A stretch of 64,000 nucleotides of DNA from Alphaproteobacteria bacterium (GTDB taxonomy: Bacteria > Pseudomonadota > Alphaproteobacteria > UBA9219 > RFNS01). The stretch's first letter is position 1, and each line of letters begins with the position of its first letter. Positions 8,504 to 25,843 of this stretch are shown here, piece after piece. A model generated the notes under the pieces. It did no database searches. It worked only from the letters and a program-made list of their open reading frames with translations, and had not been told where the DNA came from. A program made the position numbers and the translations under genes. Where the stretch lies: assembly GCA_037200005.1 (NCBI GenBank), contig JBBCGY010000001.1:42416-106415 (forward strand), in the 5' to 3' direction.

Positions 8504-11500
8504 ATGGTCGCTGACATTCAATACACCCAGCCGGAACCGAATTATGACGGATTCCGCGAAGCGCATGTTGAAGAAGCAACTTTCGATTGGCTCTCTGGGC
8601 TTGGCTGGACACTCGCGCATGGGCCGGATTTGGCACCGGAAGGCAAAGCCCCGGAGCGGGCCAGTTATGGCGACGTGCTGTTGTTGGGGCGGTTGAGGAC
8701 AGCCTTGGCCGCGATCAACCCGCAACTCCCCGCCGATGCGATTGACGACGTGGTGCGTAAGATTATCGCAGTCGAAATGCCGTCTTTGGTCGAAGAAAAC
8801 CGGCGCTTGCATAAACTGATGGTCGATGGCGTGGCTGTGCAATACATGCAGGCCGACGGCACGATCAAAAACGACATCGCGTGGCTGATCGACTGGGAAA
8901 ACAAAAAGAACGATTGGCTGGCCGTCAATCAATTCACGGTCATCGAAGAACGCAACAATCGCCGCCCCGACGTGGTGATGTTTATCAACGGTTTGCCCCT
9001 TGCCGTTATTGAATTGAAGAACGCGGGAGACGAAAACGCGACAATCGAAGGCGCGTTCCGCCAGACGCAAGCTTACAAGCAATTGATCCCTTCTCTGTTT
9101 CGCACGAACGGCATACTGATTATTTCCGACGGACTGAAAGCCCGCATCGGCAGCCTGACCGCAGATTATGAGCGTTTCATGCCATGGCGCACGGTGGATG
9201 GGGCCGGTGTCGCGGCCAAAGGAACGCCCGAATTACACACAATGATTCACGGCGTTTTTGAGCAAGGGCGTTTTCTGGAGTTATTGCGCCGGTTCACCGT
9301 GTTTCAAAGCAACGGCAAAGATATTTTCAAAATCGTAGCAGGATATCACCAGTTCCACGCCGTAAAGCTCGCCGTTGCCAGCACCATCGACGCAACGGCC
9401 AGTGAAGGAAATCGCAAAGTCGGCGTCATCTGGCATACGCAAGGATCGGGCAAAAGCCTGTTGATGGCATTTTATGCGGGCAGCGTGATTGCCAATCCTG
9501 CGATGGCCAATCCGACTCTGGTTGTGCTGACCGACCGGAATGATCTGGACGACCAGCTTTTTTAACACTTTCAGCCTATCTCGTGATCTTATCCGCCAGA
9601 CGCCCGCGCAAGCGGGAGATCGCGATGAATTGCGGAAGCTTCTGGCGGTATCATCTGGCGGCGTTATCTTTACGACCATTCAAAAATTTCTGCCCGCTGA
9701 TAGTGAAAAAACTTTCCCGCTGTTGACTGACCGCAAGAATGTCATCGTCATCGCCGATGAAGCGCACCGCAGCCAATATGGCTTCAAGGCCAAGTTGGAT
9801 AAAAAGTCGGGCGAATTAGCTTATGGTTTTGCGAAACACCTGCGCGATGCGCTGCCGAATGCGTCCTTCATTGGCTTTACAGGAACGCCTATTGAGAAAG
9901 CAGATGTCAATACGCCCGCCGTATTCGGCGATTATATTGATGTCTATGATATTCAACGCGCGGTCGAAGACGGCGCGACGGTGCCAATCTATTACGAAAG
10001 CCGCCTAGCCAAACTCCAGCTTGACGAAGAGGAAGTCAAAAATCTTGATGCTGAGGTCGAAGAACTGACCGAAGACGAAGAATCCAGCGAGCGCGAGCGT
10101 AAGAAAAGCAAATGGTCGCGCGTTGAAGCCCTGTGGGAGCCGAAACACGCTTGGCTCAAGTAGCCGCCGATATTGTTCAGCATTTTGAGAACCGTATCAG
10201 CGCCTTAGACGGCAAAGGCATGACCGTATGCATGAGTCGCCGTATTTGCGTGGCGCTCTATAACGAGATTATTAAATTACGGCCCGCATGGCATTCAGAC
10301 GATGACGCGCAAGGCGCTATCAAGATTGTGATGACGGGCAATATCGCCAACGATCCGCCTGAATGGTTGAAACATACGGGCAGCAAGGCGCGCCGTGATT
10401 TCCTGGCAAAGCGGGCGCGCGACGCTAAAGACCCGCTAAAACTTGTTATCGTTCGTGATATGTGGCTTACGGGCTTTGATGCGCCCTGCATGCACACGAT
10501 GTATGTCGATAAGCCGATGCATGGTCATGGCTTGATGCAGGCCATTGCCCGTGTAAATCGCGTATTCCGCGACAAGCCAGGCGGCTTGATCGTTGATTAT
10601 ATCGGGATTGCCCATAATCTGAAACAAGCTCTCTCTATTTATTCCCCCGGCGACCGCGAAGAAGTCGGCATTGACGAGCAGCAAGCCGTCGCAGAGATGA
10701 TGCGCCGCTATGAAATCGTCCGGGATATGTTTTATGGATTCGATTATATGCGCGCGCTGCACGGCACACCGGCTGAACGCTTAGTGCTGATGGCCGAGGC
10801 TCTGGAGTGGATTCTCGATTTGCAGCAACGTGAAGCTGCAAAAGAACAGACCGAACAAGCCAGGAAAGAGGTGCGCCGCAAATTCTCAGACGCCGTTGTT
10901 GGCTTATCGCGCGCCTATGCGCTGGCCGCAACCTCGCCAGAAGCGGGGAAAATTCGTGATGAAGTCGGTTTCTTCCAGGCTATTCGTGCAGCCCTGGCAA
11001 AAAATGAGCCGGGCAAAGGTAGCACACAGGCGGAAATCGATGTGGCCGTCCAACAAATGGTCAGTCGTGCCGTGGTGTCAACGGAGATTGTCGATATTCT
11101 GGCGGCGGCAGGCATTAGAACCCCGGATATATCCATCCTCTCAGATGAATTTCTGGCAGAAATTCAAGGCATGAAGAAGCGTAACCTTGCATTGGAAGCC
11201 TTACAGAAACTCATCAATGGAGAAATAAAATCCCGCATCAAATCGAACGTGGTGCAATCTAAGAAATTCAGCGAACGACTGGAAGCCGCCGTCCGGCGCT
11301 ATCATAACAACGCTATAACTGCCGCGCAGCTTTTGGAGGAGCTGATTGCCATCGCAAAGGATATTAAAGCTGACCGCGAACGAGGAGAAGAACAAGGACT
11401 TAGCGAAGAGGAAATCGCTTTTTATGATGCTCTGGCTGAAAATGAAAGCGCATTGCAGTTGTTGGGCGATGAGAAATTACGAGTGATTGCTACTGAACTG

Positions 11501-11680
11501 GTTGTCTCCGTTCGCAATAATGTGTCTGTTGACTGGATGCACCGCGATAGCGCCCGCGCCAAGTTGCGCATCGAAGTCAAAAAGATTCTCAAGAAATATG
11601 GCTATCCGCCAGATTTACAGGATGCAGCGGTGCAACTGGTGTTGCAGCAGGCCGAAGTTTTGGCCCCACTCTGGGCATAA
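8504..11680 (+). pseudogene. hsdR: Type I restriction endonuclease subunit HsdR, split into three ORFs by two frameshifts (~9560 and ~10140)
   Basis: Three successive overlapping ORFs (8504-9565, 9540-10163, 10133-11680) together cover a ~1058-aa HsdR: N-terminal nuclease region, DEAD-box helicase motifs ([12 protein letters not shown]) and C-terminal domain. The first shift is in a T7 homopolymer (DQLFF|NTFS). Confidence 0.85.
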
Positions 11681-11772: not shown

Positions 11773-12903
11773 TCAAAGCGCCAGCCGGGGCCGGATTAGC
11801 GACAAAGGCCGGGCAGTGGAAAGCTGGAGGCCAACAGCTTCGTTTGGAACATTGGAAAAATCGGTAATAAGCGGCAGCATGGCGTTAGGGCCAAGGGCGC
11901 GTGGTGAGGCACCTAGTTCTTTAAGAGCGGAAACAATTTCCGGTTCATTTAGCGCATGAATGCGCATAAGGGGTTGCGTAGTGTCAGGAATCCATTTCCT
12001 GCGCGAGACTTCATCGCGGCCCGTCGAGATAAGTGCCGCGACCACGTCCTTGAGTTTGTCGCCTTTCGGCAGATTGCCGTTGCTGGTGATTTGAGCGCGG
12101 ACAATCGGCTCGCCCAGGAAGGTCGAAATGGCTTCCGTAAAACTGGCGGCGATTTTCTGATTGCCGTCCTCACTTTGCCAATTCGCCAGGAACACATTTG
12201 GCAAGCTGGAGTCTTTGCCGGGTTTCGCGGCGAAGTCCGCGAGCTGGATTGCAACTCGTGAGCGGCCCGTTTCAATGGGCGCATCGCCGATAAATTCCAG
12301 AACGGCGCTATCGTCCGGCGCTCCCATCGTCGCACCGAGTTTCTTGAAGATGCCGGTCATGGCCGCATTGCCGCCCGCATATTCGCCGACGCGGCCGCGC
12401 GAGACGAGGCCATAGGGCGAATAGCCTTGTTCGCGGCTGACGGATCGCCGGATTTTCTCGTAGATAAAATGCGAGCCAAGTCCAATGCCATTCGGGTATT
12501 CCGCGCTTTTTGTGCGATTACGGAATTCCTGGGATAGTTCCGGCGACACATAGGTATCTTCGCCATAGATAGCAGGATAATGGCGGAAATCCCGGCCATT
12601 GCGTTCCGTGAGAACGGTCGGAAACTCGATTGAGCCACCGGCGAGTTTGGGGCTGCAATTTTCCCACTCCACGATGGCGAAATAAGCCTGAATTTTATTT
12701 TTCTTGATGGCCTCGATAACTTTGCCGAATTTGGCGTTATCAGCGGACGCTCCATGCGTCACGGCTTCACTTTCGACGATTCTATAAAGAATCTCATCAA
12801 GCGCCATATGATGAACGACGTCCGTACCGTTCATGCGCACGATGCTGGCTTTGGCGTTTCCCGGCAGCAGACCGGGCATATTATCGAGCGCAACGGAAGA
12901 CAT
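11773..12903 (-). CDS. uncharacterized conserved protein (376 aa), paralogue of 24000-25298
   Basis: Shares HYPAIYGEDT, YPNG(I/L)GLG, GxVSxGRVxEYxG and KxGAT motifs with the 24000-25298 ORF. It overlaps the upstream XRE regulator gene by 4 bp, so the two are co-transcribed. Confidence 0.6.
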   Translation of the reverse strand: MSSVALDNMPGLLPGNAKASIVRMNGTDVVHHMALDEILYRIVESEAVTHGASADNAKFGKVIEAIKKNKIQAYFAIVEWENCSPKLAGGSIEFPTVLTERNGRDFRHYPAIYGEDTYVSPELSQEFRNRTKSAEYPNGIGLGSHFIYEKIRRSVSREQGYSPYGLVSRGRVGEYAGGNAAMTGIFKKLGATMGAPDDSAVLEFIGDAPIETGRSRVAIQLADFAAKPGKDSSLPNVFLANWQSEDGNQKIAASFTEAISTFLGEPIVRAQITSNGNLPKGDKLKDVVAALISTGRDEVSRRKWIPDTTQPLMRIHALNEPEIVSALKELGASPRALGPNAMLPLITDFSNVPNEAVGLQLSTARPLSLIRPRLAL

Positions 12904-12905: not shown

Positions 12906-13556
12906 TTATATTTTCCCCTTGTCGTCGGGGATCGAAGCATTTTCCCAGAATGATTCAAATTGCTCGACATATCTTTCGGCCAAGGGCTTGGAGTGTATCG
13001 AAACGACTTCGACATTATGATCGCTGCGATGCACCGCCTGGGCGATATAGTCATTATAGACGTAATAGGGAATGAGGATTTTCGTCGTCTTATCCAGCCA
13101 GCGATATTCGCAATAGCTGGCGGAGAAATTATAGTCGCCATCCAGGATAAGAACGCGGGCGTCAAGATTCGGAAGCTTGCTCATTCTTTCCATATGCTCG
13201 GTCGCATAATCTTGCGCATAGGAAAGGGTCTTGCCGTCGCTGGAATTAAACTGGCGAATGCGTCCACCGTCTTTCAGCGTTTCGTATATATGATCGAGGA
13301 ATTGTCGGTATCCGGCTTTGCCCGAAAAAACCCTGACTTGGTTTCTCCGCATCCGAACGCCCTCGTCATCCAGGAATTCGACGCCGTGCCGGTCGAAAGC
13401 ATTGGTTATGCTGGCGATGGTCTTCTCATGCGGTTGTACCGTATCGGCCTCGATTTTGCTCACGGTCACGCGGGTAAGCCCGGCCTCCCTAGCCAAGTCT
13501 TCCGCTTTCCATTCCAGTAAGCTGCGCGCTGCGCGAATTTGACGCCCGGTAATCAT
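12906..13556 (-). CDS. XRE-family HTH transcriptional regulator with ~150-aa C-terminal domain
   Basis: N-terminal HTH_XRE (IRAARSLLEWKAEDLAREAGLTRVTVSKIE). It is the first gene of a two-gene minus-strand operon. Confidence 0.7.
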   Translation of the reverse strand: MITGRQIRAARSLLEWKAEDLAREAGLTRVTVSKIEADTVQPHEKTIASITNAFDRHGVEFLDDEGVRMRRNQVRVFSGKAGYRQFLDHIYETLKDGGRIRQFNSSDGKTLSYAQDYATEHMERMSKLPNLDARVLILDGDYNFSASYCEYRWLDKTTKILIPYYVYNDYIAQAVHRSDHNVEVVSIHSKPLAERYVEQFESFWENASIPDDKGKI

Positions 13557-14278: not shown

Positions 14279-14493
14279 TGATGGCGAATTTTCATGAACG
14301 CCCCATGACATATAAAAAGCTCGTCGCTCGTTACGGCCATGACATGGCTTTCGATTTACTCGTCACTATCGAGAGCCTTGCGAAGATTAAGCACGACATC
14401 ATCGAGATCAACGAAGAAATTCGTCTGCAACGCGCGCTGGAAGTTTTGGACGAGGCGGAATTCGGACAGGCAGATAAAGGCGGGGTCAAATGA
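14275..14493 (+). CDS. small hypothetical protein (72 aa)
   Basis: Starts MMMANF. ATGA-coupled on both sides. Confidence 0.5.
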   Translation: MMMANFHERPMTYKKLVARYGHDMAFDLLVTIESLAKIKHDIIEINEEIRLQRALEVLDEAEFGQADKGGVK

Positions 14494-14738
14494 TTTCCGG
14501 TAATAACATACCCAATAAAAAGCTTGCGCCGCGTGAAATCGAAGTCATGACCTTAACGGCGCGTGGCAAGACGACCACCGAAATTGCAATGCTTCTCTCG
14601 ATTGCCGAGGATACAGTTAAGACTCACATCAAACGATCCTGCCAGAAATTGAACGCGGCCAATAAAACACACGCCGTTGCTCTCGTTATGGCTCGCGGCA
14701 TAATAGAATGTTCCTGTTGTCACCCGAAAGGGGGATAG
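14490..14738 (+). CDS. stand-alone LuxR/GerE-type HTH transcriptional regulator (82 aa)
   Basis: LuxR-type HTH signature (LAPREIEVMTLTARGKTTTEIAMLLSIAEDTVKTHIKRSCQKL). It lies directly upstream of rhs. Confidence 0.7.
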   Translation: MISGNNIPNKKLAPREIEVMTLTARGKTTTEIAMLLSIAEDTVKTHIKRSCQKLNAANKTHAVALVMARGIIECSCCHPKGG

Positions 14739-14820
14739 AACTGCATTTTTATTTGCGCTACATAGTTGCGGCGCATTGGCGATGAAGTTAGAGTAAATTT
14801 TCGCGAAGGGGAGAACGGCG

Positions 14821-17800
14821 ATGGTGGCACCTGCGAAGAAATTTCACGAAGCGAACGGCGAACTCACCAATGAGGCAGGGGCAACGCGACCGCCGCTCTC
14901 GAGGAACAGCCTCTGGCGGACACTGCGCCCCGGGATCTCGGTGGGAGTAAGCCTCGCGGCAGTCGTCGCTTGCGAAAGCGGCGAACCCAACGCTTCAAAT
15001 GACAACATCGTTTCGATTTCCCAAGCGATAGGCTCTGCGACAATCTATAGCTTGCCTACCAATGTTTTGATGCCCAATGCCATCAATAATCAAAATCTCA
15101 TTGTGGGCCAGGGTCTGCCTTCGATCTATGATGCCAACACGGGAACATTTAGTAGCCTTGAAGTAAACCAGCCTTCGGGGGCGGTCACTTCCTATGCAAT
15201 TAGCAATGCCGGTCACGTTGTCGGCAATTCATTCAATGTTGGGCCGGTTTCCAATTCGGCGTTCATTTCACAGGGCGGACATTTGTCCGATCTATACGCC
15301 GGCAACAACAACGGGGTGACCAGCGTCGCTTACGGCGTCAACAATTATGGCCAAGTCGTCGGCACGATGCCGGTGACGGTCAACGATGCGAACAATAGTC
15401 CACATCCTTTCACGCATGCGTTCTCGTGGCAGGGCAGCGTTACAGACCTTACACCGAACTACTATGGAAATTCAGCCGCCTATGGCATCAACGATGCTGG
15501 GCAGATCGTGGGAACGATAGGAACTGCGGGGGTCAAGTGGCAGGGCGGATCGTCAAGCACGCTGCCGAGCGGCACCAGCACGCCCGCCATGATCAACAAT
15601 GTCGGTCAGATCGTCGGGACATATAGTTCAGGCGGTTCGTCGCACGCTTTCCTTGTGCAGAGCGGCACCCTGACCGATCTCGGAGCCATACAGGGAAGCA
15701 CACCTGTGAGGATCAACAACAAAGGACAAGTTACGGGCGGCTTCTACAACACGGGTGCCGGACAATATTACCCGAGCGTCTGGCAGAATGGCGTCGTGGT
15801 TACGATTCCCACTCTGTCGGGCATTCCCGCAGGCTGGTCTATCACGTCGATAAACGGCATCAATGACAGCGGAACCGTCGTAGGGCAAGGCACGCTTTCG
15901 GGTTCTTCACGGGGTTTTTACCTAACTTCGCCGCAGCTTCTGAACTACGCCATTGCCGGAAAGCCCTACGATCCGAAAGCGAATGGTGGTGAGGATTCGG
16001 CGTCAACCCCGACAGACGATCTATGTGGAACTCATGGCATGTGTGTGCCCAACGCGCAATTGCTGTCGGCCAGCTTGAATTTGAACGATACGCCGATTGG
16101 GTATCAGCCGCCCAAAGGGCCACCAGCCTATATCCGGCTTACATATAATCATCGTGACAGTGTCGCGCCCAGCAGCACTTCCTCGCATGTTGGGCCAAAC
16201 TGGACTCTGAATGTCATTTCTTACATTCAGGATGATCCGGCCAGCCCGGGCCAGAGCGTCACGCGCAACGTGGCGGGCGGCGGTATCGTCGACTACACTT
16301 TTGAGGCAGGGCAGTTCAATACCACCACGGGTGCATTCGGGCCGGAGAAGCAAACCGGGGCGATCTTGAAACGGACTCCCGCGACAGGGTTCAGCGCCAG
16401 TGCTTCCTATGAGCTTTCCTTTCCCGATGGGGCCAAGCAAATATTCTCCTACCCGGATGGAAGCTTCAATTATCCGCGCCGCGCATTCCTGACGGATATC
16501 GTTGATGCCTCAGGCCAGGGCCTGCATTTTGGCTACAATTATCTTCAAGGAACTTTCGGCGCGATCAATTGCACGCCGGGATGTCCGCAACTGCAATCAG
16601 TTTCTGATGCTAATTTCCGTGCAACAAACTTCGTCTACGGTGACGCATCTAATGTCTTGCGCGTGACGCGGATTAATGACCCGTTCGGGCGTCACGCCGA
16701 TTTAGCTTATGATGGCAGCGGACGGCTTTCGTCAATCACGGATGTGATCGGCATTCAATCGTCTTTCACCTATGACACCACCGACCCTACTTTCATCAAA
16801 AAGCTAACGACACCCTATGGCGATAGCAATTTCGTCTTTGGGCAAGATACGGCGACGGATCGTCGTTGGCTCACACTCTCCGATGCCGTGGGCAATACGG
16901 AAAAAGTGGAATACCGGGGCAGCAGCGCCAGCGGCATAGCGGCGTGCGACAAAAACACGAGCGATGCGTCGTGCAGTGTCTCGACCTCCGTGCCGACAGG
17001 CATGCCTAACGGCATCAATAACGCCGATCTCGACAAGCGCAACACCTTTGTCTGGAACAAATGGATGTATGCGAATGGCTATGGCAGCGATTACACGCAG
17101 GCGAATGTTACCCATTGGCTCAAGGACGGTGCGGGCAATCCCGTGGGGATTCCGGAAAGCGTCAAGCCGCTGTACGAATCCCGCATTTGGTATAATTATC
17201 CCGGCCAGAACGATCCTAGCACCCCAGGAACCCTGTCTGTGCCGAGGGCGACGGGCCGCGTGATCACCGATCCGCTTTACGGGCAAGCGCCGCAGAATCA
17301 GGTTTACCAAAGTCAATATAACAGCCTCGGCAAGCCCACCTTGACCGTCGATCCCTACAAGGTTTCAGGCAACAACAATGAAGGCCGAACTACACGCATG
17401 ACCTATGATGCCTCCGGCGTCGATCTTTTGACGGTGGAACAGAAAACCGGCAGCGGAACGCCGGGGACATGGGCGACGATTGCTTCCTACGTCTATACCG
17501 ATCCGACAGAACAGCCCACATCGATCCACAAACCGATCCGCTATACCGACGCGGCGGGGCAAACTTATAAATTCAAATACAATGGCGACGGCCAATTGAT
17601 CTATGCCGCCAATCCCTACAACGATACGACGTATAATGAATATCATCCGTCCGGCAAGCTCCTGCGGACGACCATGCCTGTGCCGAGCGTAAACTGGAAT
17701 ACCATCGATTATGGAACCGATATTAACGGCGCGCCGACGGGGGCGAGCAACAGCAGCGCCCTAAGGGACACCGCCATTACCTACGACTCCGCCGATCGTC

Positions 17801-20202
17801 CGTATGACGTGACCGACCGGATGGGTCTGGTGAAGCGTTTCGGCTACGACAATCTCGACCGGGTAACGCGGGTGGATTACGCCCCCGGCACGGCGGGCAC
17901 GACCTATGAGACGAACACCTATACCAACCTCGACCTGACATCGCACCGCGACCGGCTTGGCCGGGTTAGCACCGATGTTTACACGGCGAACCGGCAGCTG
18001 TGGCTGAGCTTCAATGCTTCGGGAACGCGGCGGGGCTTCACCTATTACCCGAACGGCGCGCTACAAGGCTACTACGACGAGAACGACCATCCTACAATCT
18101 ACGGCATCGACGGCCAGGGACGCGCCAACGCCGTCGTCTATCCCAATGGCAACCAGACGAATTACTACTACGATGATGGCGGGCGGATGCGCACCATTGT
18201 CGATCTCGACGGCTCGAACCAGCGCTGGCGGAACATTAAATATAACGTCGATAATAGCGTCCATATCCGCGACTATACCAACCCGGCAAATCCGTCCGAT
18301 CCCGTGGTTCTGGCGACGACAACCGCGACCTTCACCTACGATCCATGGTTCCCCGGACAAATGACTTCAATGGCCGATGCCAGCGGAACGACCAACTATA
18401 CATACAAAACCGTAGGCACCGTCGGCGCCTTACAACTCGCGACCGAAAATCCGCCGACGGTAAGCGGCGACGCGGATAAAATCACCTACACCTATGACCA
18501 GAAGGGACGGCTCGCCTCGCGCCAGATCGGTATCGGCACGGCGAGCGTGCTGCCGCAGGAAAGCTGGGTGCGCGACACCTATGGCCGCATTAACAGGCAC
18601 ATCATTCCCGACGGCAACCTGTTCTATTACGACTTCAACGGCGCGAGCAATCAGGTGACAATGCGCGCGTTTCGCAATCAGGCGCTGACGGAGATCGACC
18701 CGCTGAATACGCGCACGATGATGAGCTACGACACGGCGGCGAACGACTCGCGGCTGCTGACGATCAACAACCCGCCCTACGACAACAGCGCGCCCGGCGC
18801 GCGGGACTTCACCCTCAATTGGGGATCGTCGCCCGCCAATCCGTACGTTCCGGCGACGATCACCGACTCCGCTGGAGGCCCCGGCGGGGCGTGGGGACAG
18901 CGGGTGTGGACGATGGGCTATGACGCGCGCGACCGGCTGACCTCGGCGGTCGCCGCCGACCGCAGCTATTCGTTTACCCTGGACGCGCCGGGCAACGCGA
19001 CGAGCTTCACCAGCACGCACTATCCGAGCGGCGGGCTGTATAGCTTTAACTCGACCTACAACACGTCGAACCAGATGACGGTGGCGAACGGCAACGCGCT
19101 GATCTACGACCCCTACGGCAACCTCGTCACCCACACGAACTACCGCAGCTTCAAGTACGACGCCGAGAACCGCCTGATCGAGGTCGACTTCCCCGCCGCG
19201 CCCGCCGACAAGGTTGAGATGCAATATGACGGTCTTGGTCGCCGCACGCAGATCAAATCCACCATCGGCGGCGTCGTCACGACGCGGAACCTGCAATGGT
19301 GCGCCCAGACGACCTCGCCGCCGTTCCAGGGCGCGGCGGAAGAGATATGCGTCGAGCGCGACGCATCGGGCGGCATGCAGCGCATGGTCTATCCCGAGGG
19401 CGAATATCGCGCCAACGGCGGCCGGTACTTTTATGAACGCGACCAGACCGGCAACATCCGCGACGTGATGAAGATGGCGGCGGGATTGACGACCGCCGCG
19501 CGCGATAGCTCCTTCAACTACACGCCTTATGGCGGCGTCGACGGCAAAGACGGCACTGCCGAGCCGCTGCAGCAGTTCGCGGGACTGCTGTATGAGAAGA
19601 ACAGCAACCTGTTCCTCTCCCGCACCCGCGCCTATGCCCCATGGATCGGCAGATGGCTCCAGCGCGATCCGATTGGGCAGAATGGGGGGAGTAATGTTTA
19701 TGAGTATGCGGGGGCGAGTCCGATTAACAAGATTGATCCGAGCGGGTTGCAGGGGGTGCGACCTGGGTTAATAGAAACGATGCGACCTACAATAGGAGTG
19801 CCACCAGCAGCGGGGATCAACGAGGGGGCAGGAAATTACGCCGATTATCTTCAAGAAAATGGAGAAATGATGGGTGATCTAGCCACCCTTTATAGGGCCA
19901 CTAGCGCGGCGGTTGCCGGTGCGAGCAACCAATCAATGCGAGAGGATATTGAAAAAGCAAAAGTATGCACATCGTTTGGAAACAGCATGTCGGCGGATCA
20001 GCCGTTATGGTGCGGGCCTGGCGGATGCGCGGATAGCGTCAGGCAGCAGTGGCTGGATGCGACCGGCGGCTTAGTGTATCCACAAATCATCGAGTCTTTC
20101 AAAAAGAGGTTTGAACCGGCTCCCTCGCGGCTTGTGTCGACGCCGATGCGTGGCAATGACTTCGGTAATTCGGTTTTATTCCCTAATGTGGGCCCAGGTT
20201 AG
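14821..20202 (+). CDS. Rhs-family polymorphic toxin (1793 aa): N-terminal HAF repeats, RHS/YD repeats, RHS core, DPxGL cleavage motif, ~150-aa C-terminal toxin domain
   Basis: Repeated NxxGQ(V/I)VG and HAF motifs in the first ~350 aa. Many YDxxGR(L/R) repeats. RHS core YFYERDQTGNIRDVM. IDPSGLQ (PxxxxDPxGL) at ~19740, followed by a unique tail. A lipobox-like VVAC lies near the N-terminus. Confidence 0.9.
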   Translation: MVAPAKKFHEANGELTNEAGATRPPLSRNSLWRTLRPGISVGVSLAAVVACESGEPNASNDNIVSISQAIGSATIYSLPTNVLMPNAINNQNLIVGQGLPSIYDANTGTFSSLEVNQPSGAVTSYAISNAGHVVGNSFNVGPVSNSAFISQGGHLSDLYAGNNNGVTSVAYGVNNYGQVVGTMPVTVNDANNSPHPFTHAFSWQGSVTDLTPNYYGNSAAYGINDAGQIVGTIGTAGVKWQGGSSSTLPSGTSTPAMINNVGQIVGTYSSGGSSHAFLVQSGTLTDLGAIQGSTPVRINNKGQVTGGFYNTGAGQYYPSVWQNGVVVTIPTLSGIPAGWSITSINGINDSGTVVGQGTLSGSSRGFYLTSPQLLNYAIAGKPYDPKANGGEDSASTPTDDLCGTHGMCVPNAQLLSASLNLNDTPIGYQPPKGPPAYIRLTYNHRDSVAPSSTSSHVGPNWTLNVISYIQDDPASPGQSVTRNVAGGGIVDYTFEAGQFNTTTGAFGPEKQTGAILKRTPATGFSASASYELSFPDGAKQIFSYPDGSFNYPRRAFLTDIVDASGQGLHFGYNYLQGTFGAINCTPGCPQLQSVSDANFRATNFVYGDASNVLRVTRINDPFGRHADLAYDGSGRLSSITDVIGIQSSFTYDTTDPTFIKKLTTPYGDSNFVFGQDTATDRRWLTLSDAVGNTEKVEYRGSSASGIAACDKNTSDASCSVSTSVPTGMPNGINNADLDKRNTFVWNKWMYANGYGSDYTQANVTHWLKDGAGNPVGIPESVKPLYESRIWYNYPGQNDPSTPGTLSVPRATGRVITDPLYGQAPQNQVYQSQYNSLGKPTLTVDPYKVSGNNNEGRTTRMTYDASGVDLLTVEQKTGSGTPGTWATIASYVYTDPTEQPTSIHKPIRYTDAAGQTYKFKYNGDGQLIYAANPYNDTTYNEYHPSGKLLRTTMPVPSVNWNTIDYGTDINGAPTGASNSSALRDTAITYDSADRPYDVTDRMGLVKRFGYDNLDRVTRVDYAPGTAGTTYETNTYTNLDLTSHRDRLGRVSTDVYTANRQLWLSFNASGTRRGFTYYPNGALQGYYDENDHPTIYGIDGQGRANAVVYPNGNQTNYYYDDGGRMRTIVDLDGSNQRWRNIKYNVDNSVHIRDYTNPANPSDPVVLATTTATFTYDPWFPGQMTSMADASGTTNYTYKTVGTVGALQLATENPPTVSGDADKITYTYDQKGRLASRQIGIGTASVLPQESWVRDTYGRINRHIIPDGNLFYYDFNGASNQVTMRAFRNQALTEIDPLNTRTMMSYDTAANDSRLLTINNPPYDNSAPGARDFTLNWGSSPANPYVPATITDSAGGPGGAWGQRVWTMGYDARDRLTSAVAADRSYSFTLDAPGNATSFTSTHYPSGGLYSFNSTYNTSNQMTVANGNALIYDPYGNLVTHTNYRSFKYDAENRLIEVDFPAAPADKVEMQYDGLGRRTQIKSTIGGVVTTRNLQWCAQTTSPPFQGAAEEICVERDASGGMQRMVYPEGEYRANGGRYFYERDQTGNIRDVMKMAAGLTTAARDSSFNYTPYGGVDGKDGTAEPLQQFAGLLYEKNSNLFLSRTRAYAPWIGRWLQRDPIGQNGGSNVYEYAGASPINKIDPSGLQGVRPGLIETMRPTIGVPPAAGINEGAGNYADYLQENGEMMGDLATLYRATSAAVAGASNQSMREDIEKAKVCTSFGNSMSADQPLWCGPGGCADSVRQQWLDATGGLVYPQIIESFKKRFEPAPSRLVSTPMRGNDFGNSVLFPNVGPG
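18996..19750. repeat. direct repeat copy 1 (~755 bp, ~98% identical to 21505-22258): rhs core-end segment
   Basis: Near-identical nucleotide and protein sequence (GNATSFTSTHYPSGGLYSF...PINKIDPSGL) in both copies. The antisense ORF-track entries are duplicated too (19140-19385 = 21651-21896). Confidence 0.85.
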
Positions 20203-20207
20203 TCCTA

Positions 20208-21478
20208 TGAAAAAGTTTACTCTATTGCTTGTCGCGCTTTGTAGTCTGACAATGTTACCGGCTCATGCCGCTGACCAAGACTCCAAACCACCCGTCATTG
20301 ATATTCCTGCCACGCGAAAAGAGGCGGAGTCTGGAGATGCTCGGGCTCAATATAATCTGGGCATAGCTTATCTCAACGGTTACGGGGTGAAGAAAAATAA
20401 AGATGAAGCTATTGAATGGATTTACAAAGCAGGGAAGAACAATGATGCCCTCGCAATATATTTCTTGGGCAGCGCATATCATGATGGCGACCTTTTGCCA
20501 CAAGACTACGCCAAGGCTATGAAGTGGTATCACAGGTCCGATGAATTATACGGCAGTCCCCTTGCGCAGAATATGCTTGGCGTGATGCACGAAAACGGTC
20601 AGGGGGCTCCACAGAATTATGAAGAAGCGGCTAGGTGGTATCGCAAAGCTGCCGAGAATATTTACGCACCGGCTCAATCCCATCTTGGATTCCTATACTA
20701 CGCTGGACGCGGCGTTCCTAAGGACGATCAAAAGGCTCTATATTGGCTTAAGAAAGCAGCCATACAAAACGATGCGCCAGCAAAGCTTATGCTAGGCATT
20801 ATGCACTATAAAGGCGAAGGAGTGGAAAAGAATTACGTTAAAGCTGTCAGCTATTTTCGCGAAGCCGCAGACGTCGGAATATCGATAGCTGAACGATATT
20901 TGGGAAATATGTATTACCACGGCGAAGGCGTTTCCAAGGATGAAGCCCAGGCTGTGTCTTGGTGGCGCAAAGCCGCCGAACAAGGGGATAGGGAGTCGGA
21001 AAAGATCATAGGTGGTATGTACTATTATGGCACAGGAGTGTCGAAGGATTTTTCCCAAGCCGTTTTATGGTGGCAAAAAGCTGCGGAAAAGGGTGATGTC
21101 GATGCTCAATGCAACTTGGCGAAAGCTTACTATCATGGAGAAGGTATAGGAAAAGATGAAACTCAAGCTGTGTTATGGTGGCGGAGGGCCGCGGCACAAG
21201 GACATGGAGAATCCCTCCTTTATTTAGGACAAGCGTATTTTAGTAGCATAGGCGTATCGCAAGATGATGTGCAGGCTTATATATGGCTAAGCTTGGCGGC
21301 TACAAGAAATCAGTCGTCAGCGGTTGCAACACTCACGGAACTCGAAAAGTCCATGACGCCGGAACAAATCGCTGAAGCCAGAAAACGCGTGGCAGAATGG
21401 AAACCCAAGCCTGAGCCAAAGCCTGCCCCAATAGGGCCAATACCCGAAATTCTAAAAGAAGTCCGTGAAGATTTATGA
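20208..21478 (+). CDS. Sel1-repeat protein with signal peptide (candidate periplasmic immunity protein for Rhs-CT1)
   Basis: Signal peptide MKKFTLLLVALCSLTMLPAHA. At least 9 Sel1 repeats (AQYNLGIAYLNGYGVKKNKDEAIEWIYKAG...). Sits immediately downstream of the rhs toxin tip. GC ~45% versus ~62% for the rhs body. Confidence 0.8.
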
Positions 21479-22668
21479 TCTCGACTTCGAGGATGCATTT
21501 GGGCAATGCGACGAGCTTCACCAGCACGCACTATCCGAGCGGCGGGCTGTATAGCTTTAACTCGACCTACAACACGTCGAACCAGATGACGGTGGCGAAC
21601 GGCAACGCGCTGATCTACGACCCCTACGGCAACCTCGTCACCCACACGAACTACCGCAGCTTCAAGTACGACGCCGAGAATCGCCTGATCGAGGTCGACT
21701 TCCCCGCCGCGCCCGCCGACAAGGTTGAGATGCAATATGACGGTCTTGGCCGCCGCACGCAGATCAAATCCACCATCGGGGGCGTCGTCACGACGCGGAA
21801 TCTGCAATGGTGCGCCCAGACGACCTCGCCGCCGTTCCAGGGCGCGGCGGAAGAGATATGCGTCGAGCGCGACGCATCGGGCGGCATGCAGCGCATGGTC
21901 TATCCCGAGGGCGAATATCGCGCCAACGGCGACCGGTACTTTTATGAACGCGACCAGACCGGCAACATCCGCGACGTGATGAAGATGGCGGCGGGATTGA
22001 CGACCGCCGCGCGCGACAGCTCCTTCAACTACACGCCTTATGGCGGCGTCGACGGCAGAGACGGCACCGCCGAGCCGCTGCAGCAGTTCGCGGGACTGCT
22101 GTATGAGAAGAACAGCAACCTGTTCCTCTCCCGCACCCGCGCCTACGCCCCATGGATCGGCAGATGGCTCCAGCGCGATCCGATTGGGCAGAATGGCGGC
22201 GCGAATGTTTATGAATATGCGGGGGCGAGTCCGATTAACAAGATTGATCCGAGCGGGCTTCAAAGCATCCAGAATGCGGATGACTGGATAAAACAGAGAA
22301 ATGCCCCTGCTCAGCCGTCAAATAGTATTTGGAGTGAGATCCTAGATAAAATCAGAGAACCTGTGTCTAGAAATGAAGCCATTAGTGAGATTACAAATTT
22401 CCGTCAATCTGGAGAGGCCCAAACTGAAGCACAGATAGCTAGAATGCTCATGGGTTTACCCGTCGAACCTGATTTTTCTGTTGCTATAGGAGGGGCTGAA
22501 GGTGAGCAAGATCTTGGCAGAGCGATTATGTCGGTAGCGCGCGAGATTTTGCGCCGCCCTGCGGAGCAGTCGTGCCCAATAGTTCAGAGAAAAGTCTTCG
22601 GTCAATCCTTGCCACCAAGTGATTTTGGTGACAAGAATCTCCCACTGCCATCTATATTAACCCTTTAA
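21475..22668 (+). CDS. orphan rhs C-terminal cassette: duplicated core-end plus an alternative 136-aa CT toxin domain
   Basis: The first 260 aa match Rhs residues ~1390-1650, including DPSGLQ. A different tail follows. Its start overlaps the Sel1 gene stop (ATGA), and it lacks the N-terminal 1400 aa. Confidence 0.8.
   Translation: MISTSRMHLGNATSFTSTHYPSGGLYSFNSTYNTSNQMTVANGNALIYDPYGNLVTHTNYRSFKYDAENRLIEVDFPAAPADKVEMQYDGLGRRTQIKSTIGGVVTTRNLQWCAQTTSPPFQGAAEEICVERDASGGMQRMVYPEGEYRANGDRYFYERDQTGNIRDVMKMAAGLTTAARDSSFNYTPYGGVDGRDGTAEPLQQFAGLLYEKNSNLFLSRTRAYAPWIGRWLQRDPIGQNGGANVYEYAGASPINKIDPSGLQSIQNADDWIKQRNAPAQPSNSIWSEILDKIREPVSRNEAISEITNFRQSGEAQTEAQIARMLMGLPVEPDFSVAIGGAEGEQDLGRAIMSVAREILRRPAEQSCPIVQRKVFGQSLPPSDFGDKNLPLPSILTL
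21505..22258. repeat. direct repeat copy 2 of the rhs core-end segment
   Basis: See copy 1. The offset between copies is 2509 bp. Confidence 0.85.
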
Positions 22669-22700
22669 AGAATATGAGTGGAATTGAGGGAGTTAATGCA

Positions 22701-23489
22701 ATGAAGAAGATAATTATTATTACGGCATTTGCTTTGATGGTCGCATCAGTTCAAGCTTATGCTGCCGTCCAGGATGAAAAAGCCGACAGTTTGTTAGGGC
22801 ATCGCCTGTCCGAACAATTACGGAAAACAGAAGCGCAGACAACTCTTGCTGCGGGAAAAGAGCTATTTAAAACAGGCGAAGGTCTTTCTAAGGATAATGT
22901 CGATGCAGTAAAGCTATTTCGCGTAGCTGCCAATCTTGGCTCGATGGAGGCACAAACAATTCTCGGCGCTGCATACCTTAGTGGCGATGGAGTGCAAAAA
23001 GATATTCCTGAAGCTTTAAAATGGATACAAAAATCTGCCGCCCAAGGAGACGCCAAGGCTCAACATTTATTGGGTGTATTGTATCATGAAGGATCAGACG
23101 TAAAAAAAGACAATGTGAAATCGTTAAAATGGATACGGAAAGCAGCGGAGCAAGGTTTGCCATCGGCACAATTTAGTCTTGGCACTATGCTTTCTAAAGG
23201 ATATGGAACACACCGAGATGAAACTTCAGCGATGGAATGGTTTCATAAATCCGCAAACCAAGGCTATGCTAAGGCCCAAATTATGCTCGGAATTGCATAT
23301 CACCTAGGTAAAGATATATCTAAAGACGATATTCTAGCTGATCAATGGCTGATATTGGCCGGGGAAAAAGAGGCACGTGATGATTTGGAAAAATCCATGA
23401 CCCCCGAACAAATCGCCGAAGCTATAAACCGCGCGGCGGAATGGAAGCCGAAACCACCAACCAAGCCCGATCCTGAATCCAAACCGTAG
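22701..23489 (+). CDS. Sel1-repeat protein with signal peptide (candidate immunity for orphan CT2)
   Basis: RBS GAGGGAG. Signal peptide MKKIIIITAFALMVASVQAYA. About 5 Sel1 repeats. The C-terminal KSMTPEQIAEA...EWKPKP tail is shared with the first Sel1 protein. Confidence 0.8.
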   Translation: MKKIIIITAFALMVASVQAYAAVQDEKADSLLGHRLSEQLRKTEAQTTLAAGKELFKTGEGLSKDNVDAVKLFRVAANLGSMEAQTILGAAYLSGDGVQKDIPEALKWIQKSAAQGDAKAQHLLGVLYHEGSDVKKDNVKSLKWIRKAAEQGLPSAQFSLGTMLSKGYGTHRDETSAMEWFHKSANQGYAKAQIMLGIAYHLGKDISKDDILADQWLILAGEKEARDDLEKSMTPEQIAEAINRAAEWKPKPPTKPDPESKP

Positions 23490-23999: not shown

Positions 24000-25298
24000 A
24001 TGAATCAGGCATTTAACTCCGATCCCTATAAGCGCCTGCCCGGCGGCATCCGGGCGGCGGTTTTGCCGATGCAGGGGGCCGACCTTGTGCATCAAGCCAC
24101 GCTCGGCGCGGCGCTTGAGCATATCATCGGTCATGAGGCTGCGGTTCATGAAGCGGCTTTCCAAAGCCAGCATTTTCACAAGATTTTGAAGGCAAGCGAG
24201 AAAGGCGAAATCAACGTCCTTTTTCTTATGGCCGCGATGCATACATGTTTGCCGAAATTGGCGGGCGCGGCGATTGAACTTCCGACCGTCATTACGAAAT
24301 GGCAAGGCAACGAGTTTAAGCACTATCCCGCCATCTATGGCGAAGATACATGCGTTCTGCCGGAATTCTCCAAAACCTTCCGCGAAAAGACGGCGGGCGC
24401 GCTTTATCCTAATGGCCTGGGCCTTGGCACATGGTTCGCCAAAGAACGGATCGAAGGATCGGTATCGGGCCGCTCTGGGTTCGCGCCTCTCGGCATGGTG
24501 TCCCAAGGCCGTGTTTGTGAATATTCCGGGCATAACGGGCCGATGATTGGACTCTTGAACAAATTCGGTGCAACGACTGCGCCGGACGCGAGCGCAGTCC
24601 TCGAACTCGACGGCCTCACTCCCACGATGAAAAGCCGCTGGCAAGTGCCGGTCGATACTGAAGCCTTGGCCGATCAGAACGGCAAGCCCCTCGACAATAT
24701 TTTCGTAACGAGATGGTCAGGCGAAAGCGGCAAGCAACAAATCGCCGCAAGCTTTACGAAAACCATCTCCACCTTTACCGGCGATCCTATTGTGCGCGTT
24801 CAGCTAACGAGCAACGGCAATCTTCCGAATGGCGATATGCTGCAAAATGTACTATCTTCACTGCTGGCTGCCGGTCACGACGAAATCCGCGAGCGGAAAT
24901 GGGCCATAGCAGGCGAATTAAAAAGTGTTGCTAGCAACCGAAGCCCGATCATCCCGCTCCTTGCTTCCCGGCAGCAGCAAATGGCTGCGCTTCTGTCCGC
25001 AGGGCGAGATGAAATTCTATCCCGGCGTATCGGCATGGATGATTTAAGCCATATTTTCGGCGGCGCGGTTCCGACAATGCGGATTCATGCGCTCAGGAAG
25101 CCGGAAATAGTCGCGGCCTTGAAAGACTTAGGTGCACAACCCCGTATTCTCGGCCCCCACGTCATGCTGCCCGCGATTATGGACTTCGCCAATATGCCGC
25201 AGGAGGCGCTTAATTTCGATCTGCCCCCGGCGAGGCCGCTGAATACGGTCAATCATAGAGGCGCAACCAGCACGCCGCTTTTCTCTCTGGCGGCATAA
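24000..25298 (+). CDS. uncharacterized conserved protein (432 aa), paralogue of 11773-12903 with an internal duplication/insert
   Basis: About 55% identity to the 376-aa protein over the shared core (HYPAIYGEDTCVLPEF...YPNGLGLG...GMVSQGRVCEYSG). Two similar segments (LLAAGHDEIRERKWA / LLSAGRDEILSRRIG) indicate an internal repeat. Confidence 0.6.
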   Translation: MNQAFNSDPYKRLPGGIRAAVLPMQGADLVHQATLGAALEHIIGHEAAVHEAAFQSQHFHKILKASEKGEINVLFLMAAMHTCLPKLAGAAIELPTVITKWQGNEFKHYPAIYGEDTCVLPEFSKTFREKTAGALYPNGLGLGTWFAKERIEGSVSGRSGFAPLGMVSQGRVCEYSGHNGPMIGLLNKFGATTAPDASAVLELDGLTPTMKSRWQVPVDTEALADQNGKPLDNIFVTRWSGESGKQQIAASFTKTISTFTGDPIVRVQLTSNGNLPNGDMLQNVLSSLLAAGHDEIRERKWAIAGELKSVASNRSPIIPLLASRQQQMAALLSAGRDEILSRRIGMDDLSHIFGGAVPTMRIHALRKPEIVAALKDLGAQPRILGPHVMLPAIMDFANMPQEALNFDLPPARPLNTVNHRGATSTPLFSLAA

Positions 25299-25776: not shown

Positions 25777-25843
25777 TCGCATTCAATATCCCGAATATTT
25801 CCAAAGCCATTTTTCGTCAATCTTATTCTCATGGAGGCATGTC

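Follow-up and report, generated by a model that had tools for sequence, protein, structure and literature searches.

The locus lies within the 64-kb stretch of DNA analysed here (hereafter the window) and consists of a LuxR/GerE-type HTH gene, a large rhs gene, a gene for a Sel1-repeat protein, an orphan rhs-CT cassette, and a second Sel1-repeat gene, all on the forward strand (Table 1). The rhs reading frame described in the first-pass annotation was confirmed, and the product (hereafter the Rhs protein) carries, in order, an extended Sec-type signal, a HAF-repeat domain, a linker, an Rhs plug and YD-repeat shell that ends in the Rhs-associated core, and a C-terminal domain, CT1. The orphan cassette duplicates a segment of the rhs core and then continues into a different C-terminal domain, CT2. 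The source is a metagenome-assembled genome (MAG), so local assembly errors are possible.

Table 1. Features of the HAF-Rhs locus, in window coordinates.
Feature	Position	Strand	Residues or size	Evidence or remark
LuxR/GerE-type HTH gene	14490..14738	+	82 aa	Pfam GerE, 63.6 bits
Shine-Dalgarno AAGGGGAG	14806..14813	+		7 nt 5' of ATG 14821; read from sequence
rhs ORF	14821..20202	+	1793 aa	Confirmed as described
Extended Sec-type signal	14821..14970	+	aa 1-50	Kyte-Doolittle maximum 2.48, centred on aa 46
Lipobox-like VVAC	14962..14973	+	aa 48-51	PROSITE-type lipobox regex
HAF-repeat domain	15040..15927	+	aa ~74-369	Seven repeats, predicted 7-bladed beta-propeller
Low-confidence linker	15946..16071	+	aa ~376-417	pLDDT <50 in 1200-residue model
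Family-conserved Cys motif CGTHGMC	16024-16044	+	aa 402-408	Within linker
Rhs plug and YD-repeat shell	16072..19749	+	aa 418-1643	RHS_repeat, YD_repeat; opens with motif SLNLNDTPIGYQPPKGP, closes with Rhs-associated core
Direct repeat, copy 1 (3' part of rhs core)	18990..19746	+		Terminates at DPSGL codons
Rhs-associated core	19519..19749	+	aa 1567-1643	TIGR03696 Rhs_assc_core, 66.3 bits
C-terminal domain CT1	19750..20199	+	aa 1644-1793, 150 aa, 3 Cys	Position after DPSGL
First Sel1-repeat protein	20207..21478	+	423 aa from ATG 20207	Sel1, 280 bits over 9 repeats
Orphan rhs-CT cassette	21475..22668	+	397 aa	Translation, repeat analysis, RHS_repeat match
Direct repeat, copy 2 (duplicated core segment in orphan cassette)	21501-22257	+		98% identity over 758 nt
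C-terminal domain CT2	22258-22665	+	136 aa	Follows duplicated core segment; differs from CT1
Second Sel1-repeat protein	22674..23489	+		Sel1, 136 bits

Start codon and upstream neighbour of the rhs gene

The NCBI record of the rhs gene (MEJ0061671.1, annotated by PGAP) begins at an internal TTG, codon 155, and gives a product of 1639 amino acids without the signal; the public annotation is thus N-terminally truncated and shows neither the signal peptide nor the whole propeller. We regard the long ORF as the better call because a start at TTG-155 would cut the propeller, an alignment pairs the residues 5' of codon 155 with the opening HAF repeats of relatives, and a second gene caller gives the 1793-aa product on the same contig (P0325). 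An in-frame stop at 14794 precedes ATG 14821, and a check of alternative start codons found none that is usable before V41. The LuxR/GerE-type HTH gene ends 82 nt upstream and, as a neighbour of rhs, is a candidate local regulator. A promoter and terminator scan gave counts no higher than in shuffled sequence.

Predicted signal sequence and HAF propeller

The signal of the Rhs protein consists of ~30 hydrophilic residues, an n-region (RNSLWRTLR), and an h-region (PGISVGVSLAAVVA), and both signal and lipobox were called by a hydrophobicity scan, a regular expression, and comparison with relatives. The segment VGVSLAAVVAC (aa 41-51) fits a PROSITE-type lipobox pattern ([LVI][ASTVI][GAS]C following a hydrophobic stretch), which makes Cys51 a candidate lipidation site; alternatively, SPase I could cut between AVVA and CE. 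Lipoprotein cysteines normally fall at about residues 15-35, and Cys51 lies past this range; late lipobox cysteines also occur in two other family members (P0187, position 43, and P0209, position 40). The first-pass annotation had pointed to a lipobox-like VVAC after an N-terminal extension of ~45 aa: the pattern is present, but it is matched by only 13 of 114 family members (compared with about 1% of internal windows) and is not kept in the closest HAF relatives, whose signals are of the SPase-I type. Similarly long (~45-aa) extensions are found in two HAF-Rhs proteins of a second clade (P0139 and P0176), and four relatives of the same architecture have clear signal peptides (P0122, P0124, P0181, and P0131). 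All HAF-clade relatives whose N-terminus is intact begin with a signal; in the HAF-clade gene P0123, the signal peptide and the first repeat lie in a frameshifted upstream ORF.

The statement in the first-pass annotation that the first ~350 residues contain at least seven HAF repeats agrees with the seven repeat cores located here (at aa 88, 127, 173, 223, 258, 298, and 347) and with a score of 55.4 bits for NCBIfam TIGR02913 (HAF), against a cut-off of 22.65 (E 4e-15). The N-terminal 460 residues match only HAF/DUF3466/PEP-CTERM extracellular proteins, with E-values down to 1e-30, which accords with the further statement that HAF domains are typical of secreted proteins. Judged by these profile and sequence scores, the HAF match is far beyond chance. 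The domain also models confidently, and its structural matches are 7-bladed propellers. It is 28-40% identical to HAF-repeat extracellular proteins (TIGR02913/DUF3466) across 250-300 residues and has the same layout of a predicted signal peptide and seven repeats; those proteins, however, are typically stand-alone propellers of 330-420 amino acids or carry Ig-like/PKD domains and a PEP-CTERM anchor in addition, whereas here the domain is fused to an Rhs toxin. A signal-like N-terminus precedes the repeats in the Rhs protein, and the C-terminal PEP-CTERM is absent since the C-terminus is taken by the Rhs toxin. In the Cys motif of the linker that follows, G406 and M407 are invariant in all six HAF-clade sequences. 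The model suggests that the propeller is flexibly tethered to the shell, and it probably binds a cell surface.

Shell, autocleavage core, and putative toxin-immunity arrangement

The YD/RHS-repeat shell of Rhs polymorphic toxins is present: Pfam RHS_repeat (PF05593) scores 85 bits over nine stretches and TIGR01643 YD_repeat 79 bits, the model is shell-like, and the gap from the plug motif (aa 418) to the first YD repeats is only about 100 residues. A PDB sequence search with the shell matches only T6SS-type Rhs cores (7q97, E 4e-19), and the propeller-plus-shell model resembles the T6SS Rhs shells 7q97 and 8uy4 (TM 0.38-0.46); its top Foldseek match is the bacterial teneurin-like protein 9ifo, with a poor global superposition (TM 0.19). 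The PxxxxDPxGL core is found with both aspartyl-protease motifs intact, RDPIG (aa 1615) and IDPSGL (aa 1639-1643), and the 23-residue spacing of the aspartates presumably matches that of D651/D674 in TccC3. Self-cleavage is predicted after Leu1643.

The domain released by such a cut, CT1, is presumed from its position in the sequence to be the encapsulated toxin. At this point the G+C content falls, from about 0.60 in the rhs core to 0.50 just downstream. Neither CT1 nor CT2 has a match in Pfam or in a PDB sequence search (both at E<=10), and neither has a homologue in a large protein index, which is weak evidence because the same search missed the Rhs protein itself. With no homologues and no recognisable fold to go by, the toxicity of both domains is assumed from position only. 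The identity between the two core copies breaks sharply, exactly at DPSGL, and the order CT1-Sel1 followed by core-CT2-Sel1 has the variable C-terminal domain, paired downstream gene, and orphan cassette of a polymorphic-toxin locus. The intact autocleavage motifs, the orphan cassette with its paired gene, and the break at DPSGL together form a signature of toxin/immunity diversification. Relatives of the Rhs protein carry unrelated C-terminal domains and different small downstream genes.

The first Sel1 protein has its own signal peptide, read from the translation as MKKFTLLLVALCSLTMLPAHA and ending before AD, and the second, with a probable start at M10 (22701), begins with the signal peptide MKKIIIITAFALMVASVQAYA. 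The two are candidate periplasmic immunity proteins for CT1 and CT2, respectively. Their signal peptides point to a toxin that acts, and an immunity that is sited, in the periplasm; they fit a Sec/periplasm route and cannot be reconciled with a T6SS spike that is loaded in the cytoplasm. Because Sel1 repeats are generic interaction modules and the two proteins have a C-terminal tail in common, they could also be something other than immunity proteins. The P0122 locus, too, has a Sel1-like, membrane-anchored gene downstream.

Secretion context and relatives

The first-pass annotation proposed that HAF repeats take the place of a PAAR, prePAAR, or VgrG-type N-terminus and that the window holds no T6SS genes. 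Both points stand: no PAAR-family match was found in the Rhs protein at E<=1, nor any PAAR, prePAAR, or DUF4150 in Pfam/NCBIfam, and no T6SS family (vgrG, hcp, Eag-type chaperone, or core component) was detected among the scanned ORFs of at least 150 aa in the window, a neighbouring vgrG being likewise absent. The surroundings of six further HAF-Rhs loci, out to 10 kb, are free of T6SS genes too. The Rhs protein differs from a T6SS PAAR-Rhs effector in having no PAAR-type domain, no T6SS linkage within the window, and a Sec-like signal. An all-against-all comparison of ORFs among 11 loci revealed no conserved secretion component.

A type IVb-pilus/secretin cluster at 46.6-56.7 kb was considered as an exporter and rejected, being about 26 kb away and in a different G+C context. 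Since it adjoins a T4SS_TraI gene, and given this distance and G+C context, we take it to belong to an ICE-like element; a search for att sites around tRNA-Lys found no repeat of at least 14 nt within the window.

By its plug and N-terminal shell the Rhs protein belongs to a large family, of which more than 140 cluster representatives match at E<1e-53. A Sec-type hydrophobic N-terminal segment is found in 93 of its 114 full-length members (~80%). The N-domain is helical and peptidase-C39-like in 89 of 119 family members and consists of HAF repeats in only six, the Rhs protein here and five others; a second Rhs clade, with DUF6531, also has HAF-Rhs fusions, and signal peptides are present there. 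Species-representative genomes scanned with aa 1-800 yielded no close relative, and a profile scan of such genomes yielded seven loci, all in MAGs, with HAF in one only, which is identical to P0124. The representative search gave 573 matches at E<=1e-30, a count that includes HAF-only proteins; they come mostly from uncultivated Proteobacteria, Acidobacteriota, and Myxococcota. A small signal-peptide ORF 5' of three HAF-Rhs genes (L001, L003, and L005) resembles the helical segment that opens the C39-type N-domain, and no ORF of this type occurs in the window.

With its HAF domain, the Rhs protein is thus a rare form within a family of Sec-exported Rhs toxins that is large but has been little studied. 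Gram-negative Rhs proteins are usually treated as T6SS cargo, whereas in this locus and family many have Sec signals and no T6SS link. The literature searched contains no mention of HAF repeats fused to Rhs, and no Gram-negative HAF-Rhs or C39-like Rhs protein appears to have been studied experimentally so far. A delivery route that is possibly non-canonical, as the first-pass annotation put it, agrees with the Sec-type signal and the lack of a nearby T6SS; 'non-canonical' nevertheless overstates the case because signal-peptide Rhs toxins are already a recognised class, defined computationally (PMC3482391), and the shell here comes from a large family of this kind.

Proposed mechanism and alternative explanations

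On balance, we think it probable that the product of the rhs gene is a polymorphic toxin that depends on Sec and not on T6SS and bears its propeller on a tether. The precursor would pass SecYEG unfolded and would then either be lipidated at Cys51, after processing by SPase II, or be cut by SPase I. Folding of the shell would take place in the periplasm and enclose the C-terminal domain, which would be self-cleaved yet remain inside, and the exported Sel1 protein would neutralise the toxin in the periplasm of the producer, implying a target in the envelope or periplasm. Display on the surface or release could follow by a general route, as no dedicated secretion gene is linked, and the flexibly tethered propeller may serve as a surface-binding module, either for a receptor or glycan on the target or for the producer's own surface. 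Homologous recombination between the copies of the 758-nt repeat would allow a switch of toxin by way of the orphan cassette. We are least sure about the passage of a ~190 kDa cocoon across the outer membrane and about the identity of the propeller's binding partner.

Several other explanations can be weighed against this mechanism. The protein could act mainly as a teneurin-like surface adhesin or cell-cell recognition protein, with a C-terminal domain that contributes little or no toxicity, which we consider unlikely. The signal peptide, propeller, and YD shell do parallel teneurins and the teneurin-like protein that is the top Foldseek match (9ifo), neither CT1 nor CT2 shows a recognisable toxin fold or has homologues, and a signalling role for bacterial teneurin-like proteins was left open by the authors who described them (PMC13018210). 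Against an adhesin speak the intact autocleavage motifs, the orphan cassette with its paired gene, and the break in identity exactly at DPSGL, as well as the variation among relatives, in which both the C-terminal domain and the small gene after it differ. It is quite unlikely that the protein is instead T6SS cargo whose propeller docks on the spike of a T6SS encoded, together with a fitting VgrG/PAAR or adaptor, in another part of the genome. T6SS effectors do make up most of the Gram-negative Rhs toxins that have been characterised, T6SS Rhs proteins are among the closest solved shells by both sequence and fold, and our T6SS search covered the 64-kb window of a 1.83-Mb contig; PAAR-less Rhs effectors have reportedly also been claimed, in a paper on RhsP that has since been retracted. 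Yet a cleavable Sec signal routes a protein to the periplasm while T6SS substrates load in the cytoplasm, and this signal is found in ~80% of the full-length family and in all HAF-clade relatives with an intact N-terminus. The immunity candidates are periplasmic as well, no PAAR match was found, and the seven HAF-Rhs loci, this one included, have no T6SS gene nearby.

An anti-eukaryotic toxin of the Tc/ABC type, in which a BC-like cocoon carries a propeller that docks on a separate TcA-like translocator or on a host cell, strikes us as very unlikely. TcB-TcC cocoons do hold a beta-propeller, 4o9x and 6h6e are among the structural matches, and Sel1 proteins are often found in host-associated bacteria; but the Rhs protein has no SpvB/TcdB N-terminal domain, its propeller is N-terminal to the shell and not inserted, the window contains no TcA-like gene, and the Tc structures rank well below the Rhs and teneurin matches. 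Orphan cassettes and paired genes downstream are features that interbacterial systems typically show, and to our knowledge Tc components are without Sec signals, unlike the Rhs protein here. It seems highly improbable, finally, that codons 1-154 are untranslated and that the product is a cytoplasmic Rhs protein with a truncated, non-functional HAF remnant. The choice of TTG by PGAP speaks for such a product, against an open frame whose ATG stands behind a strong Shine-Dalgarno and a stretch that encodes two further HAF repeats, aligning with those of relatives, and completes a confidently modelled 7-bladed propeller; the 1793-aa call by another gene caller also argues against it.

A broader possibility, which we hold to be doubtful at present, is that HAF-Rhs proteins and the larger C39-like sister group represent an uncharacterised route of contact-dependent inhibition in diderms, in which a Sec-exported and sometimes lipid-anchored cocoon would be displayed on the surface without a dedicated machine. 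An exchangeable N-terminal module would pick the target and set off the toxin's release into the periplasm of the neighbouring cell. The exchangeable modules in that reading are the HAF propeller, a BNR-like propeller, the C39-like domain, and a Cys-rich domain. If so, the N-domain of these Rhs proteins would be the counterpart of the receptor-binding region that is exchanged in CdiA or colicins. By what route a ~190 kDa cocoon gets to the diderm surface and hands over its cargo is a question also raised in 2026 for bacterial teneurin-like proteins, and the HAF variant, with its modelled propeller on a tether, periplasmic immunity candidates, and toxin-switching cassette, offers a compact test case. 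It would also give a first functional context to the otherwise uncharacterised HAF/DUF3466 repeat.

Comparison with known systems

By both sequence and TM-score, the closest solved shells are those of T6SS PAAR/prePAAR-Rhs effectors (RhsA, 7q97; Tse15, 8uy4; Tre23-Rhs, 7pq5), which have the same aspartyl autocleavage core. The Rhs protein differs from them in having no PAAR/prePAAR domain and no vgrG or chaperone neighbours, with a Sec signal and periplasmic immunity candidates instead. The Tc BC components are set apart by their SpvB/TcdB domains, by the place of the propeller, here before the shell, and by an associated TcA.

Signal-peptide RHS toxins have been listed as 'T2SS/Sec-dependent', with beta-propellers and adhesion domains among their components (Zhang et al., 2012; PMC3482391, Table 1). 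With toxins of this class, including the C39-like family, the Rhs protein has in common the plug, the N-terminal shell, and a signal peptide followed by a variable N-domain of ~350 aa; the N-domain of the C39-like family is helical and peptidase-C39-like, whereas that of the Rhs protein and five others is HAF.

Bacterial teneurin-like proteins combine a Sec/SPII signal, a propeller, a YD shell, a C-terminal toxin of ~15 kDa, and a downstream immunity gene, and those of Gram-negative bacteria have an SPII/lipoprotein-type signal (Raoelijaona et al., Nat Commun 2026; PMC13018210). The Rhs protein resembles them, as far as its sequence tells, in its Sec signal, its propeller beside a YD/Rhs shell, its DPxG autocleavage motifs, a polymorphic C-terminal domain of ~15 kDa, and a candidate immunity gene downstream, and neither has an associated delivery machine. 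The propeller of teneurin-like proteins, however, is of the NHL type and lies between the FN-plug and the shell, whereas here it is a 7-bladed HAF propeller ahead of the plug; no NHL match was found in the Rhs protein at E<=1, and the TIP and FN-plug domains of teneurin-like proteins were not identified in it. With HAF in place of NHL, a propeller N-terminal to the plug motif, and the low TM-score to 9ifo, membership was rejected: the Rhs protein parallels bacterial teneurin-like proteins but is not one of them.

A further parallel is with WapA of Bacillus subtilis and Streptococcus suis, a Sec-exported, wall-associated Rhs/YD toxin that is contact-dependent and independent of T6SS. The two have in common a signal peptide, an N-terminal surface module, a YD shell, a polymorphic C-terminal domain, and a downstream immunity gene, which is a candidate here. 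WapA belongs to monoderms, in which Sec export reaches the surface, and carries cell-wall-binding repeats, whereas the Rhs protein described here has a second membrane to cross and carries a HAF propeller.

Gene model and domain anatomy

The studied ORF is real and encodes an Rhs protein of 1793 aa: its ATG lies 7 nt after the Shine-Dalgarno sequence AAGGGGAG, an in-frame stop is found at 14794, and there is no second plausible start before codon 41. In the NCBI annotation, MEJ0061671.1, translation begins at codon 155, an internal TTG, to give 1639 aa; this omits 14821-15283, which encodes the signal peptide plus two HAF repeats at the front (two propeller blades). It is highly improbable that this shorter model is correct, as both homology and the propeller model contradict it: the residues upstream of codon 155 can be aligned to HAF repeats in related proteins and, in the structure prediction, complete a well-modelled propeller. 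Because of this, and because another gene call of 1793 aa exists on the same contig, we favor the long ORF.

The N-terminus is signal-like, the cleavage motifs are intact, and the domain order is established. The HAF-repeat N-terminus reported in the first-pass annotation is confirmed by NCBIfam (TIGR02913 at 55.4 bits, cut-off 22.65), by seven cores resembling [IV]N[ND]xGQ[IV]VG (aa 88, 127, 173, 223, 258, 298, and 347), and by the N-terminal 460 aa, whose sole matches are HAF/DUF3466 extracellular proteins (28-40% identity, E down to 1e-30), many of them PEP-CTERM-sorted. The lipobox-like VVAC noted there behind an N-terminal extension also holds: VGVSLAAVVAC (aa 41-51) fits a PROSITE-type lipobox pattern and is preceded by the N-terminal segment of highest hydrophobicity. 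Pfam finds RHS repeats alone (nine stretches, 85 bits) and, at E<=1, no PAAR-type domain, again as first described, while NCBIfam finds YD repeats and an Rhs-associated core at aa 1567-1643. A second structure model, covering aa 52-1251 (pLDDT 77.9), keeps the predicted propeller, followed by a probable linker of ~40 residues (aa ~376-417, pLDDT <50) and the Rhs shell. The shell starts with a motif kept in relatives (CxxGMC, then SLNLNDTP[IV]GYxPxxGP) and ends with both aspartyl-protease motifs, RDPIG at aa 1615 and IDPSGL at aa 1639. The C-terminal domain (CT1) comprises the last 150 aa, with three cysteines, and has no match in Pfam or PDB. A word-index protein search with CT1 (19735-20199) likewise gave no match and missed even P0121, a database protein containing the identical sequence, so the apparent lack of CT1 homologues is partly a limit of the tool.

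Directly 3' of rhs lies a gene for a Sel1 protein with nine repeats, whose sensible start, ATG 20207, yields a classical signal peptide (MKKFTLLLVALCSLTMLPAHA/AD). Downstream, an orphan rhs-CT cassette is recombination-ready: 21501-22257 is 98% identical to 18990-19746 over 758 nt, and identity stops exactly at the DPSGL codons, where an unrelated 136-aa C-terminal domain (CT2) begins. The second Sel1 protein, encoded after CT2, likewise has a signal peptide.

Relatives and distribution of HAF-Rhs fusions

Three relatives match the whole protein, at 34-36% identity across 81-90% of its length. Within this clade, P0122 and P0124 (the latter from an uncultured Rhodospirillales MAG) have a clear signal peptide with HAF repeats directly behind it; in P0123, a frameshift puts both the signal peptide and HAF repeat 1 in a 76-aa ORF of their own, just upstream and overlapping the beginning of the main ORF. 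A JGI assembly and a Logan assembly agree on this frameshift.

When aa 1-800 were searched exhaustively against 1.84 billion representatives, 573 matches reached E<=1e-30, and nearly all of the best 150 cover aa ~380-800 only (the plug and N-terminal shell). Members of this plug/shell family (P0180-P0324; about 140 of 150 representatives of 50% identity clusters listed) combine a signal peptide with a peptidase-C39-like domain at the N-terminus, and originate from MAGs of Accumulibacter, Burkholderiales, Reyranella, Bryobacteraceae, Terriglobales, and Polyangiaceae. We found no description of this C39-like-plus-shell architecture in the literature searched. Among 119 matches with at least 100 residues ahead of the plug, 89 share one N-domain (signal peptide, helical segment, peptidase-C39-like domain), only five, plus the studied protein, have HAF, and the rest have Cys-rich, weakly BNR-like, or unique N-domains. 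A Sec-type hydrophobic segment starts 93 of the 114 Met-starting members, and 13 of the 114 show the lipobox pattern, compared with about 1% of internal windows.

The HAF profile also places HAF ahead of the Rhs of a second clade, of the DUF6531 type (P0131, P0139, P0176, P0157, P0167, P0152), so the fusion arose at least twice; it is rare, and a signal peptide is always present if the N-terminus is intact. P0131 has a short, classical signal, and P0139 and P0176 have a hydrophilic extension of ~45-50 aa ahead of the hydrophobic segment, as in the studied protein. Very large type V-secreted proteins have extended signal peptides, which this extension recalls by analogy. Inspection of six other HAF-Rhs loci revealed no T6SS gene up to 10 kb away, and several of these loci sit inside integrase-bearing or mobilisable elements.

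A small ORF (177-224 aa) is kept just upstream in three other HAF-Rhs loci and is absent from the window. In its product, a signal peptide is combined with a Pro-rich stretch and a helical segment of ~70 aa, which resembles the first part of the C39-type N-domain of the sister Rhs proteins (motif EPLV..T..EED..L..AI); the ORF may be either a leftover of N-domain replacement or a genuine accessory protein.

Genomic surroundings

The rhs gene lies inside a region of ~50% G+C (1 to ~27 kb), and the adjoining core DNA has 60-65% G+C. G+C stays intermediate (0.52-0.58) to about 32 kb, across a block of EAL, response-regulator, and hybrid-kinase genes. The integrase gene stops 80 nt short of tRNA-Lys(UUU), and the low-G+C island is unusual in lying 5' of this tRNA. 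There is no direct repeat of the tRNA-Lys region of at least 14 nt within the window, so the other end of the island is probably outside it.

The Rhs block is bracketed by two paralogous ORFs in inverted orientation (376 and 432 aa; 44% identity), and at the locus of the Rhodospirillales relative P0124 a pair of HTH and paralogue-like proteins (26-27% identity) is likewise encoded upstream of the HAF-Rhs gene. The gene hsdR is broken into three overlapping ORFs (HSDR_N and the start of SWI2_SNF2; the rest of SWI2_SNF2; the C-terminal domains), which implies two frameshifts, from a pseudogene or MAG assembly errors. The pilus-like cluster, with T2SSF, T2SSE ATPase, PilO accessory protein, secretin, and TcpQ genes adjoining T4SS_TraI and thioredoxin-like genes, suggests an ICE-like element of the pKLC102/PAPI-1 kind; we do not connect it with the Rhs gene.

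Features of the window and of related loci (L001 and L002, loci of P0123; L003, another HAF-Rhs locus; L005, locus of P0124)
Feature	Position	Remark
Studied rhs ORF	14821-20202 (+)	
Type I restriction-modification system with embedded Fic gene	~50% G+C region	
517-aa ORF and SoFic-like Fic adenylyltransferase gene	5597-8319 (+)	between hsdS and hsdR; 517-aa ORF without Pfam match
hsdR	8504-11680 (+)	
Paralogue ORFs flanking Rhs block	11773-12903 (-), 24000-25298 (+)	no Pfam match
XRE-type HTH gene paired with left paralogue	12906-13556 (-), ~50% G+C region	
Small LuxR/GerE gene	directly upstream of rhs	
Integrase adjoining tRNA-Lys	~50% G+C region (25691-27187 block)	
Secretin, ATPase, platform-protein cluster	46.6-56.7 kb	type IVb pilus-like, beside T4SS_TraI gene
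Pilus-like cluster with adjoining genes	46636-59618	
P0123 76-aa ORF	L001 9774-10004; L002 4305-4535	
Small upstream ORF	L001 9051-9725; L003 1856-2389; L005 1758-2360	
HTH/paralogue-like pair at P0124 locus	L005 179-457 and 454-1593	

Proposed mechanism and alternatives

We think it somewhat probable that the studied protein is a Sec-dependent, T6SS-independent polymorphic toxin. It would be exported through Sec, with Cys51 either lipidated or just past an SPase I site; no conserved neighboring gene points to a dedicated outer-membrane export machine. The shell may then fold in the periplasm and cut off CT1, which would remain enclosed. The secreted Sel1 protein could serve as an immunity factor active in the periplasm, which would place the CT1 target in the envelope. 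On its flexible tether, the propeller may attach to some surface structure, either on the target cell or on the producer itself; that it binds the target cell specifically is a tentative suggestion. CT2 and its Sel1 partner could replace CT1 and its partner via recombination.

A mainly adhesive or signalling role would fit the unrecognisable CT domains but is unlikely, as the toxin/immunity cassette structure speaks against it. Delivery by a distant T6SS appears quite improbable, since it would clash with the family-wide signal peptides and with the candidate immunity proteins of the periplasm; within the window, no scanned ORF matches a T6SS family, in agreement with the first-pass annotation. 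A Tc-like anti-eukaryotic toxin is very improbable given that there is no SpvB domain, that no TcA gene is in the window, and that the propeller is wrongly placed. The earlier finding is correct and its interpretation essentially right, with the qualification that 'non-canonical' overstates the delivery route; the protein is less singular than it then appeared, given the large Sec-signal Rhs family.

Comparison with known systems

Within a large family of Sec-signal Rhs toxins that is itself unstudied, the protein described here represents a rare variant in its N-domain. WapA is the monoderm counterpart studied by experiment. In the literature searched, no paper mentions HAF and Rhs in combination, and HAF/DUF3466 on its own hardly appears. 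The main interest is how diderm bacteria display and deliver Rhs cocoons, for which this locus, having a well-defined propeller and candidates for periplasmic immunity, would be a convenient entry point. Zhang et al. 2012 (PMC3482391) predicted a broad class of RHS toxins with signal peptides, to which the protein belongs; the components they list include beta-propellers and adhesion domains at the N-terminus.

The functionally nearest described system is that of the bacterial teneurin-like proteins (TLPs). In these, a propeller adjoins the YD shell, DPxG cleavage takes place, and the polymorphic C-terminal toxin of ~15 kDa has an immunity gene downstream; Gram-negative members carry Sec/SPII signals, and no delivery machinery is known (PMC13018210). 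In Foldseek, the best match of the propeller-plus-shell model is the TLP structure 9ifo, practically tied with T6SS RhsA and at a global TM-score of only 0.19. Membership among the TLPs was rejected: their propeller is NHL and follows the FN-plug, whereas that of the studied protein is HAF, lies before the plug, and has no NHL match. The studied protein parallels these recently described toxins.
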